Of a stretch of 64,000 bases of DNA, positions 11,747-63,532 are shown piece by piece (the stretch's first letter is position 1; the number at the start of each line of letters is the position of its first letter). This DNA comes from Escherichia phage 4E10. The translations under genes were made by a program, and so were the position numbers. The stretch is from the sequence record OQ689735.1; one strand, given 5' to 3'. The notes under the pieces are model-generated. The model made no database searches and had not been told where the DNA came from. It saw nothing but the letters and a program-made list of their open reading frames with translations.

Positions 11747-12349
11747 TTATAGATTAAATCCTTCAAAATCAAGAGTATAGACAGTGTATGTTGAATACTT
11801 TTTATACTCGTATCTATCCGCAATTCTAAATACACTTCCAGCTGGTATCATTACTTCTTGTTCATCTGAAACTAATTCCATATTACGATAACGGTGGCTA
11901 TCTGGAAACTTAAAACTTGGGCTATATTCTTTACAACGTAAAGCTTTTATAGCATACTCCTGGAAATTAAATACCATAGGAGCTTTGAATTCAAAAATAA
12001 CTTGTGTATTGTATTCTAATCCAGAAGCAAAATGTAGAGCTATATTTTTATCATATGAAGCTGATACTACTTTATCAAATGTAATAATATCAATTCCTTG
12101 ATTTAACACCTGTTTAGTCTCAACTGGAACACCTCTCCAAAGAGGTTTATCGTTTGGAACCAAACGAGATTTGATTATTTCATTTAACCAAGAATGATCG
12201 TCTGGCTTATTAGTAATACAATGAATTAAAAGTTCAATTTCGGATAAATTAAATCCTTCAGAAAGTAATTCTTCACGAATAGAAGCACGCACAGATGCAT
12301 CCATTGATTTGATTTTAAAATCTTTTAATTGCATTGCTGAATATTTCAT
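11747..12349 (-). CDS. modA: ADP-ribosyltransferase ModA
   Basis: 200-aa ORF; ART-like R / S-x-S / E-x-E elements; size and order match T4 modA. Confidence 0.7.
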   Translation of the reverse strand: MKYSAMQLKDFKIKSMDASVRASIREELLSEGFNLSEIELLIHCITNKPDDHSWLNEIIKSRLVPNDKPLWRGVPVETKQVLNQGIDIITFDKVVSASYDKNIALHFASGLEYNTQVIFEFKAPMVFNFQEYAIKALRCKEYSPSFKFPDSHRYRNMELVSDEQEVMIPAGSVFRIADRYEYKKYSTYTVYTLDFEGFNL

Positions 12350-12969
12350 TCAACTACCTCAATATCATACACTTTAAATGTTCCAAATGAATCGTGTAAT
12401 TTTTCTTTTGAAATAGAAGTTATTTTATACTTTCCAATTGGAATCATCCATTCTTGTTCATGTGCAATCATCATTAAGTTATCAGTACGTTCTGAATCTA
12501 ATCCATCAGTATCTTCATATGTATACTTAAACTCAGTATTAGGAGAAGAAAGTATAATATCGCTGATATGGTCAGAGTAATTAAAAGCTTTATCAGTTTT
12601 TAAGCGAAGTATTGTGTCAGTGAAATATTCAGCATAAGAAAAAGAACACGCTGTATGCAAACTAGTAGTAAATGAATCTACCCTGTTCGTTGAAAACACA
12701 TCTCCAACCTGTAAATTTTCTATTATTTCTTTTGTTGTTTTTGATATACCACGATATAATTGATAAGGCGATTTAGTTAAATGCTTTTTAATGATTTTAT
12801 TCAACTGTCTGTGAAGAGCTTCATTCTTTTTGGCTTCCATACATTGCCAAAGAATTGATTGTTCAAAATCAGTAAACTTTTCACAAACCTTTTTATACAT
12901 ATCATGTTGAAAATCAACGCTTTCAGCTTTTATAGATAACTGTTCAACATCTGCAAGATTAATAATCAT
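12346..12969 (-). CDS. modB: ADP-ribosyltransferase ModB
   Basis: 207-aa ORF, paralog of adjacent modA (YRGIS, HEQEWMIP). Confidence 0.7.
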   Translation of the reverse strand: MIINLADVEQLSIKAESVDFQHDMYKKVCEKFTDFEQSILWQCMEAKKNEALHRQLNKIIKKHLTKSPYQLYRGISKTTKEIIENLQVGDVFSTNRVDSFTTSLHTACSFSYAEYFTDTILRLKTDKAFNYSDHISDIILSSPNTEFKYTYEDTDGLDSERTDNLMMIAHEQEWMIPIGKYKITSISKEKLHDSFGTFKVYDIEVVE

Positions 12970-17929: not shown

Positions 17930-17972
17930 ATTAACCTTTATTCATAAAAGCATTAAAAATTTGATCGTCAAT
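17927..17972. repeat. 46-bp direct repeat, copy 2
   Basis: Near-identical to 17569..17614. Confidence 0.7.
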
Positions 17973-18572
17973 AGAAACTTTTACTTTAGGCTGTTCTTCA
18001 AACGGTAATTCATATCCACATATTACAATTTTGTGATCGATACCAAAATACACAGAAGCAATATGATTAATATTATTTTCAGTGAAATCTAAATCAACAT
18101 CAATATCTTTTTGACTAACGCTCAAAGGATAATTAATACGAATAATTCGATTATCTTTAACAAAGATTCCACCGACATACTCTGTGTTGCGTTTAAAGTT
18201 TACACGTTTCCTAAATGAAAAATATTCAGGTTCTTTATGAGCCCGACTCATAGGACATAATGAATAGCTAGAATAAGAGATGTCAAATCCTACACCTTCA
18301 ATATGAACCAACGCGTCATGATTAAACCAATTATAATCATATGCCAAATCCATTATATTGTAATATGTGAAAGGCACCGGATTAACATCATATATTGTAC
18401 CTTTAAAATCTGCCCAGGCAACGATTTCATTATCTTTAACAATTACAAAAATTGTGCCAATAAGATATCCACGGTTATTTTCATCAGGCGTTATATTATA
18501 ACATTGTGCATCAGGAAATTTACCGTATTTAAACGGTGGATTTTTGTGCATATAATAAATCATATTATTCAC
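17931..18572 (-). CDS. hypothetical protein (T4 61.2 position; possible AdfA-like)
   Basis: 213-aa ORF; positional equivalent of T4 61.2. Confidence 0.5.
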   Translation of the reverse strand: MNNMIYYMHKNPPFKYGKFPDAQCYNITPDENNRGYLIGTIFVIVKDNEIVAWADFKGTIYDVNPVPFTYYNIMDLAYDYNWFNHDALVHIEGVGFDISYSSYSLCPMSRAHKEPEYFSFRKRVNFKRNTEYVGGIFVKDNRIIRINYPLSVSQKDIDVDLDFTENNINHIASVYFGIDHKIVICGYELPFEEQPKVKVSIDDQIFNAFMNKG

Positions 18573-22374: not shown

Positions 22375-22451
22375 TCATTTTTTCCATAGGCATCATTATA
22401 TTTTCCTCACTGGTTAAAGATAAAGTAATTATAACACAATAAATTTAGGCA

Positions 22452-23300
22452 TTAATCAACTTCTATCGGATGAATAGCATTAAACTTATGAAATGCTTCT
22501 GATTTTTCTTTACGTGAAACACACATGCGAAGAACCTTTAATGGCTCATCTTCTTCACCCAACGATTTTCGTTTTTCAATATTCGATGTTTTCCAACGAG
22601 CTTGTTCTGGAAACTCTCTATTGATTTGCTCAAGCGCTCTATTATGTTTAGAATTACTACGAATTGAACTGCACCCGCCAGGAGCTTGTGCTTTTCCAGA
22701 TACAACCAGATATTTGAACAAGGCCAAATGCGGATAACCTTGATTAATTAAATTGAGAAATGCATACATATCTTCGCACAAATCAATTTTTCCATACCCA
22801 ATTTGTTCTGTCGTAAGTTTTCCGAGGTCATACCATGTATTCGTGAATCCATATGAATTTTCACGATAATTACCCCAAGATGAAGTAATTTTAAAAATAG
22901 GTAGACGAGCATGACCATGATAATACCCGCAATCCATGGCATCCTCAACATATTGAATCAATTCATAGAACTGTTCACGAGTTAATTGATTAATTTTATC
23001 TACACAACGACGATCATCTCTTTTTCGCATTGAACTCATACGAATAGTAGTATCATCGTCAATCATCCAGATTCGTTGACCTGCATACATATCAGTAATT
23101 GCTTTACGAGTACCGGCAATTCCGTTTACATCATCAGGAATAGTTATAATTTTAGCTCTAGACCCATAAGCGTCATGATAAGCTTTTTCTTCATGTTCAC
23201 GCACTACAATATGGGGTTCATAATCAGTCGGAAACATATCAAGGGCAGAAACTGCCCCGACACGCTGATAACTTGGAATTACGAATTGAATCATTTCCAC
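22452..23300 (-). CDS. putative GT-A fold glycosyltransferase at the beta-gt locus
   Basis: 282-aa ORF between uvsX and 42; DxD-like motif IWMIDDDTT; not T4 beta-gt as I recall it. Confidence 0.55.
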   Translation of the reverse strand: MEMIQFVIPSYQRVGAVSALDMFPTDYEPHIVVREHEEKAYHDAYGSRAKIITIPDDVNGIAGTRKAITDMYAGQRIWMIDDDTTIRMSSMRKRDDRRCVDKINQLTREQFYELIQYVEDAMDCGYYHGHARLPIFKITSSWGNYRENSYGFTNTWYDLGKLTTEQIGYGKIDLCEDMYAFLNLINQGYPHLALFKYLVVSGKAQAPGGCSSIRSNSKHNRALEQINREFPEQARWKTSNIEKRKSLGEEDEPLKVLRMCVSRKEKSEAFHKFNAIHPIEVD

Positions 23301-52562: not shown

Positions 52563-53020
52563 TCAGCCTTATATTCAATAACAGGACATACTTTAGCTTT
52601 ACGCGCTTTTAAAAATTCGACGATAATAGATTTCTTGGGTTGAATAGGAGGTAAACCTTTATACGCCCTATCAATATTTTCTACATGTAAAGCATAATCC
52701 TTTTTCCATTTATAATCTTTATATTTTTCATGCAGTTGTGCAGGAATAACAAATGAACCGATAATAAGTAAAACAAGCAAAATGGCAAGTATAAATGCCG
52801 ATGGAAGAAGAGTCCATAAACTACCGAAAATAAGCCAACGTTGTAGGCTTTCTGCACAAATAATTGTTAGCCCTACGAGTATAGCACATCCAAAAATAGA
52901 AACGAAAAATGTAGGAATGGCAATAGACCAAAAATATGCGCATAGTGTCTTAGGTCGTTGCCATTCATCGTTAAACAATTTGAATAATTTATAATGCCAA
53001 GAGTTTTCATTAATAATCAT
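52559..53020 (-). CDS. membrane protein
   Basis: 153-aa ORF with several hydrophobic helices. Confidence 0.5.
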   Translation of the reverse strand: MIINENSWHYKLFKLFNDEWQRPKTLCAYFWSIAIPTFFVSIFGCAILVGLTIICAESLQRWLIFGSLWTLLPSAFILAILLVLLIIGSFVIPAQLHEKYKDYKWKKDYALHVENIDRAYKGLPPIQPKKSIIVEFLKARKAKVCPVIEYKAE

Positions 53021-53022
53021 AA

Positions 53023-53544
53023 TTATCCTTTCATTGAAGGCGTAACGGTTGTTAAATACTTAATCATAGCTTCAGCTTCTGATTTTGATAATGAAATTTC
53101 TCCATTGTTTTGACGAATAGAAATAAAATCCGGATGACGGTCACCACCAGCTTTTAAAACACACATATAAGTATCAGTTTCACCTTCAATATTTGAAATG
53201 ATTGAAGCAGTTCCACATGAATGCGGTTTTTGATAAATCAATGCAGCTTTTCTTCCGCCATTTGACTGCTCATAGGCTTTTAATACATCAAGCAAATCAG
53301 TTCTTTTATCAATAGCTAAAATGTTATTTTCATCTTCAATGTTAAATCCTTCGGATACTTCATAAAGTGTTACCCATAAATCACCAATGTCAATAACAGC
53401 ATTTACTTTTCCACGGCTTTCAAGAGTATGACAAATTTTCTTGATTTCGTCATAACTCATTTTAATAATATCATCTCCTTGACTAAGGAAGATGTCATTT
53501 TTAAATTCAACACGAATTAAACCGCTTCCACTTGAAATAAACAT
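53023..53544 (-). CDS. hypothetical protein (paralog pair member)
   Basis: 173-aa ORF; C-terminus EAEAMIKYLTTVTPSM resembles next gene. Confidence 0.5.
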   Translation of the reverse strand: MFISSGSGLIRVEFKNDIFLSQGDDIIKMSYDEIKKICHTLESRGKVNAVIDIGDLWVTLYEVSEGFNIEDENNILAIDKRTDLLDVLKAYEQSNGGRKAALIYQKPHSCGTASIISNIEGETDTYMCVLKAGGDRHPDFISIRQNNGEISLSKSEAEAMIKYLTTVTPSMKG

Positions 53545-53550
53545 ATTTCC

Positions 53551-54093
53551 TCACTTTGAAATCATAGTTGGAATGACAGAATCAAGATAAGTCTTTAGCG
53601 CAATAGCTTCGTCTTTGGTAAATGTGACAATATGTGCTCGAGAATCATCATTTTGGCGAACAAGTACGACATCGCCATCTTCATAAGAAGTCTTGACATC
53701 CAAAGTCGTAGTATAATTTGCAGCTACTGGATTAATAATGCTAGCACCGCGATCTTTAGCCCATTGAAGTTTAGCCTTTTCGGGTGTTTCGACTGTTTCA
53801 GATTCCAAGAATTCTTTCACCTTGGCAACGAATGTTGCCCAATTGTTGATAGAAAGACACGCAAGTTCAGTTTCAATATTACCACCGTGAGTGCCACGAT
53901 AAAAACGAACTTGGAGGTCGTCTGTAATATTAGTTACACAGGTAACTCCTGAGGGAGCATAAGATAAAATCGCAGGCAATTCCATAGGAAGAATAGTAAT
54001 ACTATCGTCTTCCTGCGTCAGAACGTATACATTACCACGTTTTTCGATAACCAGGTCACCGAACAAATCAGTTGTTTCAATTACAGCTTTCAT
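53551..54093 (-). CDS. hypothetical protein (paralog pair member)
   Basis: Track ORF trimmed to MKAVIET; C-terminus EAIALKTYLDSVIPTM. Confidence 0.5.
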   Translation of the reverse strand: MKAVIETTDLFGDLVIEKRGNVYVLTQEDDSITILPMELPAILSYAPSGVTCVTNITDDLQVRFYRGTHGGNIETELACLSINNWATFVAKVKEFLESETVETPEKAKLQWAKDRGASIINPVAANYTTTLDVKTSYEDGDVVLVRQNDDSRAHIVTFTKDEAIALKTYLDSVIPTMISK

Positions 54094-54094
54094 A

Positions 54095-54280
54095 TTATTT
54101 ACCAATTAAAGTTTCAATATAAGAATCAAGATTTACTTTAGCTTCTTCCATAAGAGTTTTGTATTTAATCTTGCTGGCATGTCCAGAAAAAGCTGATTCA
54201 TCAATAATTGTTGACGTATGAACAGCTTTACTATACGTCTCAATTAATTCTCTTAATTTAAAAGCCTGCTCACTTGTCAT
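54095..54280 (-). CDS. small hypothetical protein
   Basis: 61-aa ORF. Confidence 0.45.
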   Translation of the reverse strand: MTSEQAFKLRELIETYSKAVHTSTIIDESAFSGHASKIKYKTLMEEAKVNLDSYIETLIGK

Positions 54281-56816: not shown

Positions 56817-56825
56817 ATCACCTTC

Positions 56826-57011
56826 TTAAAGCGTATTCACATAAGCTATTAATTCGTTTTCTTTCTTATCAAACCGATCAGCAAATTCTTCTTGCTGATC
56901 GGGAGATAGCGGGCCATATTCATCATAAAAGGTGTTTGCTTCTGTATGCTCATCTAGAAGTTCATGGATAAGCTCAAACAATTTATCTTTTTGTTCTTTG
57001 CTTAGGCTCAC
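56826..57011 (-). CDS. small acidic hypothetical protein
   Basis: 61-aa ORF. Confidence 0.45.
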   Translation of the reverse strand: MSLSKEQKDKLFELIHELLDEHTEANTFYDEYGPLSPDQQEEFADRFDKKENELIAYVNTL

Positions 57012-57184
57012 AGTATGTCAATCCCCAAAAGTTTTAAAATGACTCGTTTCTGATTCATAACCGCTACGATTGAATGACCGTTGGGGTCTTTTTGACCTGA
57101 TCCAATTATAAATCCTTTTTGCGCAGAAAGTTCAATCAAAACATCAAGTTCACGTAATAATTGATATTTTAAATCATCATTCAT
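57008..57184 (-). CDS. small hypothetical protein
   Basis: 58-aa ORF below cutoff (MNDDLKYQLLRELDVLIELSAQKG...). Confidence 0.4.
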   Translation of the reverse strand: MNDDLKYQLLRELDVLIELSAQKGFIIGSGQKDPNGHSIVAVMNQKRVILKLLGIDIL

Positions 57185-57408
57185 TTTGGTTTACCTTCTT
57201 TAACGAAATCAGGATAAGGATAAAATCCTGAATAAAATCCTTCACCTTTATGATTGATGCATCCTTTATTAGAACAATAGCACCAATAATCGAAATCACA
57301 AGCCATTTCATCGTTGCATAAAGCAAAAACAACCGGCCACTTACACTTTTCACAGTGGGCATTTTTAAGAATACTAGTTTGGCTCATAACCATGTAACCT
57401 TTAAGCAA
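57181..57408 (-). CDS. Cys-rich small protein (putative zinc binding)
   Basis: 75-aa ORF with 8+ Cys (CEKCKW...CNDEMACDFDYWCYCSNKGCINHKG). Confidence 0.5.
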   Translation of the reverse strand: MLKGYMVMSQTSILKNAHCEKCKWPVVFALCNDEMACDFDYWCYCSNKGCINHKGEGFYSGFYPYPDFVKEGKPK

Positions 57409-57596
57409 TATTCTTCTACATGTTGTTTACGACCTTTCCTATCAATAAAGGTATATTCAACGAATGTTCCAATATAGTCTTTATCTACATCATGTGGACT
57501 ATTAATTGGGCATTTAGTACGGCAAATGCGTTCCCATTGACGAATAATTACTGCTTTGTTTTTAGGATCAAACGGATGCGGGTAATGTACTTTCAT
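57384..57596 (-). CDS. small hypothetical protein
   Basis: 70-aa ORF. Confidence 0.45.
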   Translation of the reverse strand: MKVHYPHPFDPKNKAVIIRQWERICRTKCPINSPHDVDKDYIGTFVEYTFIDRKGRKQHVEEYCLKVTWL

Positions 57597-58047
57597 AATC
57601 CACCACTATTAAATCAATATCAGGAGTAAACATACCGATTAATTTAGAAACCTTATCCCAATCGCCGCCAGCAATACCACAACCTATGCGTGGAATGTAA
57701 ATTACCGGTTTAAACAAAAGGATTTCTGCCTGTAGATTTAATTCTATCATGCAGTTTACTAAAGCACCATAATCAAGATTAGGACCCGGTTCGTATTGCG
57801 TATACAAATTATAGCATATACCAAATCCCGTAGGATTATGTTTAAAAACAATAGACATATCGCCTAATTTATCACGAGAACCGTACTCGGTAGTGGTTTT
57901 ATCTATTTCTAAAATTTTGGGATAGGCTCTTGCTAATTGACCTGCTACGCCAGAGCCCATTGTGTGGAAGCAATTGCACCCGTGCGCAATAATATTACCT
58001 TGAAGAAATAGGGCGACAATATCGCCCTTGATATATTTTACAATCAT
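57568..58047 (-). CDS. macro-domain protein (T4 tk.4 position)
   Basis: 159-aa ORF; macro-like motifs IAHGCNCFHTMGSGVAGQLA and IGCGIAGG. Confidence 0.6.
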   Translation of the reverse strand: MIVKYIKGDIVALFLQGNIIAHGCNCFHTMGSGVAGQLARAYPKILEIDKTTTEYGSRDKLGDMSIVFKHNPTGFGICYNLYTQYEPGPNLDYGALVNCMIELNLQAEILLFKPVIYIPRIGCGIAGGDWDKVSKLIGMFTPDIDLIVVDYESTLPASV

Positions 58048-58385
58048 CTAGTACTCAATCCTCGATTATAAGAATCTACCAAACGGTCAACCATTGAATG
58101 ACAAGCGGCTTTATCTTTCTCCTCCGCAACTGAACATTCTAATGTATTCCACTTTTTAGCATATCGTTTTAATAATGTATCGTTTTTGTATCTGCTTGAT
58201 TTATCTCTTTCTCCGTCTTTATATGCATATATTAATTTCTGTGCAAATTCAGCTTGGCATGCTTTATTTTTCCCACAATAATCTGCCGCAGTGCGGTTTA
58301 CATACTCTCTAATTTCAGTATATGATGTATCTGCTAACGCAGAAAATGAAATTAATCCTATACATAAAACCAAAATTTTAGTCAT
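58044..58385 (-). CDS. secreted hypothetical protein
   Basis: 113-aa ORF with cleavable-looking signal peptide. Confidence 0.45.
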   Translation of the reverse strand: MTKILVLCIGLISFSALADTSYTEIREYVNRTAADYCGKNKACQAEFAQKLIYAYKDGERDKSSRYKNDTLLKRYAKKWNTLECSVAEEKDKAACHSMVDRLVDSYNRGLSTR

Positions 58386-61586: not shown

Positions 61587-62060
61587 TTATTTGAATGATT
61601 TGACGTACTGAATAGAACCTTTACTATTCACAAAGGCAATTTTACCATTTTTGTTATACATGGTAGCAGTACGCTGATAGCCATAAGTTTGTTTACCAGA
61701 TTGATAACCAACTAATGCAAAATTATCTTCGCCCATTTTATTCTGCTTAGCGCGGATACGTTCATGACCGTGCGCCATAAGAACCTTAGCGTCGCCAGTT
61801 GCAATGGATCTACGAGTTTTTTCATCTTCAACTGTATTAACAAAGTCGTCAAATGAATCAAATTTAGCATGAGATTTATTATACAGTTTTCCATCTACTG
61901 CATAATTATATCCCTGTACATCCATCTCAACTTCTGTACCATCATCCAATACAGCAGTGATTTTTTGACCTTTTTTAAATTTCAAAAGATCAGTAAAAGA
62001 TTCAGCAATAATTTGAGAATTAATAGCTGCTTCAGTAATAAATTCTTGATATGTTTTCAT
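61587..62060 (-). CDS. head internal protein (IP family)
   Basis: 157-aa ORF; N-terminus MKTYQEFITEA is the IP capsid-targeting sequence. Confidence 0.7.
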   Translation of the reverse strand: MKTYQEFITEAAINSQIIAESFTDLLKFKKGQKITAVLDDGTEVEMDVQGYNYAVDGKLYNKSHAKFDSFDDFVNTVEDEKTRRSIATGDAKVLMAHGHERIRAKQNKMGEDNFALVGYQSGKQTYGYQRTATMYNKNGKIAFVNSKGSIQYVKSFK

Positions 62061-62069
62061 ATGTTTCCT

Positions 62070-62486
62070 TTAAATGTAAATATTTTTACCGTAATACTTG
62101 TACCAATGTGGTTTCATTAAAATTTTTTCATCAAGTCGTTGTTGACTCAATTTAATAGCTGATTTGCATGGATTATAATCATTTTTCCATTCTGCTGGAA
62201 TATCGCTGATGTCAGGAACTTCAGTATCTTTTATACTAAACCCGCGTTTTAAGCATTCCGTTATAATGTCTGATTGACGCTTTCGCAAAAATTCTAACTT
62301 ATCGTAAAAGAAAGTAACATGACCAGAACCTAAAATAAACTCGGAAGATATTTTAAAATCTTTAACCCGCTTACCATTTGCCACATGTTTACGAACTATA
62401 CCAAAAACACGCGGCAATTCACGGTATTCTGCGATTAAATGTTGATCAGCAAGTTCAGATACTAAAGTCAAATTAATACGAGTCAT
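62070..62486 (-). CDS. denV: endonuclease V (pyrimidine-dimer DNA glycosylase)
   Basis: 138-aa ORF; matches T4 DenV ([17 protein letters not shown]...). Confidence 0.9.
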
Positions 62487-63076: not shown

Positions 63077-63532
63077 TTAAAAGAGGTTGTTCATTATTCG
63101 GTAAAGTGAAGGACCCATCACATATTGCCACTGAGTACGAGGAATAAGAGCAAAAGCGTCCATCTCTGGAATCATAACGCCATCTTTATTTTCAAAATAA
63201 GACTCGCAGCGGCAATTTCTAAACATCTCATGCTCTACTGGAATCGTATAGTAAAATAGCTGTAAGTCTTTATTACTAGAATATTTAAATACACCTAGAT
63301 CTTCTAGAAGGTCTGGATTATAATTGCTAAAACCGGTCTCTTCTAAACATTCTCTTCGTGCTGCATCTAATGCGCTTAAATCAGAATTTTCTACACGGCC
63401 CTTTGGAATATCCCAGCGATGTGCCATCATTCCAGGCTTACGAGAACCAGTAACTCGTCCCATAAATAGGTCTTTATCTTCTGTCATAAAGATAATACCA
63501 GCTGATAATGTTTTCATTTTAATTTCCTGCAT
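63077..63532 (-). CDS. nudE: Nudix hydrolase
   Basis: 151-aa ORF; Nudix box GRVENSDLSALDAARRECLEETG; start may be the internal ATG near 63517. Confidence 0.8.
   Translation of the reverse strand: MQEIKMKTLSAGIIFMTEDKDLFMGRVTGSRKPGMMAHRWDIPKGRVENSDLSALDAARRECLEETGFSNYNPDLLEDLGVFKYSSNKDLQLFYYTIPVEHEMFRNCRCESYFENKDGVMIPEMDAFALIPRTQWQYVMGPSLYRIMNNLF

Follow-up and report, generated by a model that had tools for sequence, protein, structure and literature searches.

Defence against phages through DarT-mediated ADP-ribosylation of DNA is widespread, and host range is decided by the erasers of this modification that phages encode. The name AdfM, given to such erasers, stands for anti-DarT factor macrodomain, and in phage T4 it has been assigned to the product of tk.4. 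T4 lacking adfA and adfN remained resistant to DarTG2, from which a further factor was predicted (PMC11825919). This gap was filled by tk.4, which was the sole significant hit when a T4 transposon library was screened by HIDEN-SEQ on a DarTG2-expressing host; a clean tk.4 knock-out was sensitive to DarTG2, and the authors of this 2025 preprint, who named the gene adfM, proposed on the strength of the genetics that its product removes ADP-ribose from DNA enzymatically (bioRxiv 10.1101/2025.11.20.689424). In phage PhiKZ the same name was given to gp104, which removed DarT2-installed ADP-ribose from ssDNA in vitro (Cell Rep 2026, PMC13309987). The closest bacterial point of comparison is the Streptomyces coelicolor macrodomain SCO6735. 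Although without Lys/Asp, SCO6735 cleaves thymidine-linked ADP-ribose off ssDNA more efficiently than either DarG or TARG1 and rescues E. coli from DarT; its catalysis has been proposed to proceed through activated water, and the Q85A variant was inactive while N27S was nearly so (PMC9411070). Uracil-linked ADP-ribose in RNA is also cleaved by SCO6735, TARG1 and DarG (PMC13036486).

Here we describe how a macro-domain gene of Escherichia phage 4E10 (OQ689735.1) compares with these systems, using the whole 64,000-nucleotide stretch of that record which was analysed (referred to as the window). What the comparison adds to existing annotation is a predicted Gln-type active site, a diverged allele class and no evidence for a functional link to the ADP-ribosyltransferases ModA and ModB.

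The tk.4 locus and its neighbours

The window derives from a Tequatrovirus (T4-like) genome and aligned to T4 positions 1 to ~68,000; identity was 85-99%, and the alignment was interrupted by numerous indels and mosaic patches. A first-pass annotation had reported a 159-residue ORF at 57568-58047 carrying two macro-domain motifs, and both motifs were found there, at residues 20-39 and 121-128; the gene had not been recognised as T4 tk.4. Judged by alignment and by gene order (vs > tk.4 > tk.3 > tk), this ORF corresponds to T4 tk.4 as its positional orthologue. The features of the locus are as follows.

58044..58385, minus strand: vs (valyl-tRNA synthetase modifier), upstream neighbour; phrog_1256, E=5e-40, and T4 annotation
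57568..58047, minus strand: tk.4/adfM coding sequence with ATG start, 159 aa, single macro domain
57384..57596, minus strand: tk.3 (DUF7202), downstream neighbour; Pfam DUF7202, E=3.5e-38, and T4 annotation

The encoded protein aligned with T4 Tk.4 (NP_049723) over its full length of 155 aa, gap-free, at 57% identity (E=9e-69), and the order vs-tk.4-tk.3-tk is common to both genomes. The stop codon of vs overlaps the start codon of tk.4 (ATGA, 58044-58047), vs.1 and regB lie farther upstream of vs, and tk lies downstream of tk.3. The vs-tk.4 order was also kept in five more T4-like phages from other genera (Dhakavirus, Karamvirus, Mosigvirus, Krischvirus and Marfavirus). A promoter scan around tk.4 returned sites no more numerous than in shuffled sequence.

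The presence of a macro domain in this gene is no new observation, since T4 tk.4 carries a long-standing RefSeq annotation as 'phosphatase; contains A1pp phosphatase motif' and some GenBank records of the gene are labelled 'macro domain protein' or 'Poa1p-like family protein'; the gene is the already described tk.4/adfM. Recognition of the ORF as such explains why phages of this kind are expected to plate on DarTG2 hosts.

Fold, class and active-site residues

Both profile and structural comparisons bore out the macro domain that had been proposed from the motifs. PF01661 was matched at 31.5 bits (E=1.9e-7; gathering cut-off 22 bits) over profile positions 2-117 of 118, and PHROG 335 was matched at E=2e-69. 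An AlphaFold2 model built with 96 homologues as input had a mean pLDDT of 94.1 and a pTM of 0.89, and presented the three-layer alpha/beta/alpha macro fold. The first-pass annotation had suggested comparison with MacroD and related folds; the nearest structural neighbours of the model were TARG1, DarG, Poa1p and SCO6735/BT1257, clearly apart from the MacroD, viral and PARG types, and Foldseek agreed on these neighbours, with SCO6735 added. Tk.4 thus belongs to the ALC1/TARG1-like class and consists of one free-standing macrodomain. It contains both glycine-rich ligand loops, and the elements of the active site are listed below.

57931..57990, minus strand: first ADP-ribose-binding loop, residues 20-39, IAHGCNCFHTMGSGVAGQLA, which holds the invariant H22 and N25
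57982-57984, minus strand: H22 codon, invariant in 96 family members
57973-57975, minus strand: N25 codon, invariant in 96 family members
57796..57798, minus strand: Q84 codon, invariant Gln in the catalytic-Lys column of profile and multiple alignments
57664..57687, minus strand: second (diphosphate-binding) loop, residues 121-128, IGCGIAGG, placed by alignments

Fourteen residues were invariant across the 96 homologues, H22, N25 and Q84 among them, and within the first loop H22, G23, N25, C26, G33 and A35 showed no variation (n=96). In the alignments H22 shares its column with SCO6735 H24, TARG1 H32 and Poa1p H23, and N25 with DarG N22 and SCO6735 N27. The column of Q84 is occupied by TARG1 K84, DarG K80 and PhiKZ AdfM K78, and Q84 is the equivalent of SCO6735 Q85; in profile and multiple alignments the family motif 'NLYTQ' is aligned with 'LITK' of TARG1 and with 'FPTK' of both DarG and gp104. 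A126 occupies the column of TARG1 D125. On these residue equivalences the active site of Tk.4 departs from the DarG type, with an invariant Gln in place of the catalytic Lys in an SCO6735-like arrangement.

In T6 Tk.4 (AP018814, 9132-9599) the first ligand loop reads HTMKAGVAG, not HTMGSGVAG, so that Lys takes the place of the nearly invariant G31; the change is either genuine, and then of possible functional consequence, or an artefact of sequencing.

With respect to individual relatives, S. coelicolor SCO6735 (PDB 5E3B) and Bacteroides BT1257 (2AFC/2FG1), which are of the Gln-type within the ALC1-like class, were the best neighbours in both structure and sequence. Like them, the window protein has Gln in the column of the catalytic Lys, retains both the partner Asn and the His that precedes it, and is encoded by a stand-alone gene with no adjacent DarT; no DarT partner was present at the locus of the bacterial homologue from Pelagimonas, which is likewise a stand-alone gene as SCO6735 is. 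In contrast, identity to SCO6735 and BT1257 was just 26-29% in structural alignments, the column of SCO6735 K34 is occupied by S32, the mobile loop that follows Q84 is 5-6 residues shorter and contains no Lys (K89 being absent), and the protein is acidic, with a pI of 5.2 compared with 9.7 for SCO6735. Human TARG1 (OARD1, 4J5R) differs in that both members of its catalytic dyad are replaced in the window protein (K84 by Q84 and D125 by A126).

The DarG macrodomain (T. aquaticus 5M31/5M3E, M. tuberculosis 5M3I) differs in its catalytic K80, which is Gln in the window protein, and in its context: the window protein ends with the macro domain, has no C-terminal DarT-binding domain and has vs and tk.3 as neighbours with no linked darT. 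The NCBIfam DarG equivalog (NF048014) scored 26 bits against a cut-off of 250, and the PADLOC DarG model matched in its macro part only (E=1.5e-6). Membership of the DarG family was rejected on the score far below cut-off, the Lys to Gln replacement, and the lack of both a DarT-binding domain and a darT neighbour. T-even AdfM should be modelled on SCO6735, not on DarG.

PhiKZ gp104 resembles the window protein in being a phage-encoded, stand-alone and acidic macro protein (computed pI 5.05 for PhiKZ AdfM) which counters DarTG2, a phenotype known in the tk.4 lineage from T4. The gp104 sequence was translated from the paper (PMC13309987) and then compared. It matched M. tuberculosis DarG at E=9e-25 and has N23 and K78, while its BLASTP match to the window protein was short, covering 23 residues (E=0.001). 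With near-zero pairwise similarity and K78 in the Q84 column, identity with PhiKZ AdfM was rejected. The name AdfM covers two non-orthologous macro proteins that are independent recruitments, PhiKZ gp104 (DarG-like, Lys-type) and T4 Tk.4 (SCO6735-like, Gln-type).

Allele classes and the mosaic patch

The window protein and T4 Tk.4 share locus, single-domain architecture, near-equal length (159 versus 155 aa) and all of the family-invariant residues, yet 43% of their residues differ. Alignment of the window against T4 located this divergence as a sharply bounded patch.

57597..58009, minus strand: mosaic patch, body of tk.4, ~47-83% identical to T4 in 30-nt bins (alignment against T4)
58010..58028, minus strand: GC-rich perfect hairpin AGGGCGAU-AUU-GUCGCCCU within tk.4 codons 7-13 with a U-rich stretch after it, flagged as terminator-like by a consensus scan
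56826-57011, 57008-57184 and 57181-57408: three small ORFs in place of tk.1/tk.2 (ORF list)

The flanks of the patch were 93-100% identical to T4 in 30-nt bins, and the flanking genes, vs and the part of tk.3 past its overlap with tk.4, were ~98% identical; the drop spans from just after tk.4 codon 13 to the start of tk.3. A 13-nt deletion in the window accounts for both the rebuilt C-terminus and the overlap of tk.4 with tk.3, which is 29 nt in the window and 4 nt in T4. The second loop, IGCGIAGG in the window, matches the family consensus and reads IGAGIGKG in the T4 allele.

Between the window and T4 copies of tk.4, dS was ~1.85 (saturated) and dN was 0.39. Within the window-type class dN/dS was 0.05-0.09, and tk.4 is therefore maintained by purifying selection. 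Recent positive selection as the source of the divergence from T4 was rejected on the saturated dS, the low dN/dS and the ~15 other patches of like kind in the window; the substitution pattern points instead to an old divergence combined with cassette exchange.

The window-type allele body was found in 341 phage-database records, among them those of numerous Tequatroviruses and of Dhakavirus JS98, whose protein is 92.5% identical; BASEL phage Bas45 PaulHMueller is another carrier of this allele. For the T4-type allele, 224 records were found at a threshold of at least 90% identity, and for a Mosigvirus type, ~80% identical to T4, 154 records. T2 and T6 carry the T4-type allele (100% and 99% identity, respectively) and are for that reason of no use as indirect evidence for the window allele; the DarTG2 phenotype has been shown for the T4-type allele alone. 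About half of sequenced T4-like phages have an allele just 57% identical to the T4-type, and for these DarTG2 resistance should not be assumed.

The mosaicism of tk.4 appears typical of T-even plastic regions, because ~15 other patches below 80% identity were present across the window when compared with T4 1-68 kb (for example 22401-23300, 52601-54200 and 61601-62100) and because tk.1 and tk.2 are replaced. The comparison also revealed a dozen insertions, deletions or replacements. The T4 homing-endonuclease genes mobA, segF, segA, mobB, mobC, I-TevII and mobD lie in T4 segments with no aligned counterpart in the window. T4 tk.1 and tk.2 are replaced at window 56817-57383 by unrelated sequence with no T4 alignment; of the three small ORFs found there, that at 57181-57408 is Cys-rich (CxxC...CxC...C) and its product may bind zinc.

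The same genome has a mosaic patch in another anti-DarT gene as well. The orthologue of T4 gene 61.2 (adfA, the anti-DarT1 factor; 17931-18557, minus strand) is 74% identical to T4, and the divergence lies almost wholly within its N-terminal stretch of ~60 residues.

The 5' edge of the tk.4 patch lies directly after the hairpin. In the comparison across T4-like genera the hairpin was kept in T4, Dhakavirus, Mosigvirus and Krischvirus and was absent in Karamvirus and Marfavirus. In Krischvirus it reads GAT CTC ATC, and its stem is intact despite two amino-acid changes. The hairpin is a candidate attenuator or 3'-end element of the vs transcript, or could mark a recombination boundary.

Whether the window/JS98, T4 and Mosigvirus classes of tk.4 are functionally equivalent was also considered. 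They perhaps are not, in which case cassettes swapped between near-identical T-even genomes would be kept because each neutralises different nucleic-acid ADP-ribosyltransferases or escapes a different host sensor or inhibitor. We regard this as unlikely; if true, the diverged patch of adfA (61.2) would be in keeping with a coordinated arms race over the ADP-ribosylation of DNA.

Proposed activity of Tk.4

By analogy with SCO6735 and with the T4 genetics, the window allele of Tk.4 probably removes DarT2-made thymidine-ADP-ribose from phage ssDNA and acts in this way against DarTG2. Early in infection, Tk.4 would bind the ADP-ribose placed by the host toxin DarT2 on N3 of thymidines in single-stranded phage DNA and would hydrolyse the ribose-base bond, giving free ADP-ribose and a template that could be replicated again, and would thereby counter DarTG2 in the manner of an 'orphan antitoxin'. 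Q84, held by the invariant N25 as in SCO6735, would position the distal ribose, with catalysis through activated water. Hydrolysis of the SCO6735 kind is the best-supported mechanism because Q84 and N25 match Q85 and N27 of SCO6735, an enzyme active on DNA without the Lys. We infer both that the T4 phenotype is enzymatic and that the same activity extends to the 57%-identical window allele. The first-pass annotation had proposed that the protein erases or reads host-imposed ADP-ribosylation or tunes the phage's own, and it is the erasing of host-imposed marks that matches the DarTG2 genetics of T4 tk.4 (bioRxiv 10.1101/2025.11.20.689424).

Three observations weigh against this assignment. The DNA-holding K34 and K89 of SCO6735 are not conserved in the window protein; the diphosphate loops of the window and T4 alleles differ; and similarity to Poa1p (E=5e-9) is about as strong as that to relatives active on DNA, which means that sequence by itself does not decide the choice of substrate. 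The acidic charge of the window protein was rejected as an argument against DNA activity, as PhiKZ AdfM is equally acidic yet DNA-active. CmdTAC still defends strongly against T4, which suggests that Tk.4 gives T4 no protection from that system.

A modest chance, well below that of thymidine-ADP-ribose removal, was given to the same fold and chemistry serving another or a broader nucleic-acid substrate in the window allele, such as uracil-ADP-ribose in RNA, phosphate-linked DNA or RNA ends, or the products of other DarT2 variants. The cleavage of uracil-ADP-ribose in RNA by SCO6735, TARG1 and DarG (PMC13036486) fits with such a shift, as do the 43% of residues that differ from T4, diphosphate loop included, and the fact that T-even phages carry two or three coexisting allele classes, each about equally frequent. 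However, the invariant active-site residues are all common to both alleles, the divergence looks old and neutral-like (saturated dS) with strong purifying selection inside each class, and no bacterial defence that ADP-ribosylates uracil in RNA against T-even phages was documented in the literature examined.

Somewhat less probable again is a small-molecule enzyme, an ADP-ribose 1''-phosphate phosphatase or O-acetyl-ADP-ribose deacetylase like yeast Poa1p, that clears NAD-derived metabolites. The Poa1p match lies mainly in the N-terminal half, and the 'phosphatase' label was carried over historically from the name of the domain. Furthermore, the sole known phenotype of an orthologue is sensitivity to DarTG2 (bioRxiv 10.1101/2025.11.20.689424), and the closest subgroup (BT1257/SCO6735, Gln-type) is DNA-active (PMC9411070). 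Poa1p-like turnover of small molecules could be a side activity of Tk.4.

The two ADP-ribosyltransferase ORFs which the first-pass annotation had placed at 11747..12969 were identified as ModA and ModB and line up with T4.

11747..12349, minus strand: modA; phrog_832 'RNA polymerase ADP-ribosylase', E=4e-33, and T4 modA annotation
12346..12969, minus strand: modB; phrog_832 'RNA polymerase ADP-ribosylase', E=9e-42, and T4 modB annotation

Alt, ModA and ModB make arginine-linked ADP-ribose. That Tk.4 erases or reads the phage's own marks (those of Alt, ModA and ModB on RNA polymerase, S1 and EF-Tu, or ModB RNAylation) and tunes them during infection was considered very unlikely, although modA and modB occur in the same genome and an arginine-specific macrodomain exists (Legionella MavL, as listed in PMC13036486). 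Homologues of the macro protein were found in 2758 phage records from several families, including phages of Escherichia, Klebsiella, Salmonella, Pseudomonas, Vibrio, Acinetobacter and Aeromonas as well as Felixounavirus and Kuttervirus, whereas the 1010 phage records with ModB homologues were essentially enterobacterial T4-like phages. The macro gene lies 45 kb from modA/modB, and the structures nearest to its product belong to the TARG1/DarG/SCO6735 group and not to arginine-specific enzymes. SCO6735, TARG1 and DarG act on thymine/uracil-linked or Glu/Asp-linked ADP-ribose (PMC9411070, PMC13036486). The DarTG2 phenotype indicates a role that depends on host defence, which would still allow a second one. 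On the mismatch in distribution and on fold class the functional link to ModA/ModB was rejected, and the suggestion that Tk.4 tunes the phage's own ADP-ribosylation found no support.

The least probable reading of all was a protein that binds without catalysis, either sequestering immune signals derived from ADP-ribose or shielding modified DNA, as the SCO6735 catalytic residues are invariant in the family (Q84, N25), stoichiometric amounts would be needed, and the gene context suggests no signalling.

The window also encodes the Nudix hydrolase NudE (e.1; 63077-63532, minus strand), which is 99% identical to T4 and is annotated as active on ADP-ribose. NudE could dispose of free ADP-ribose released by the macro enzyme.
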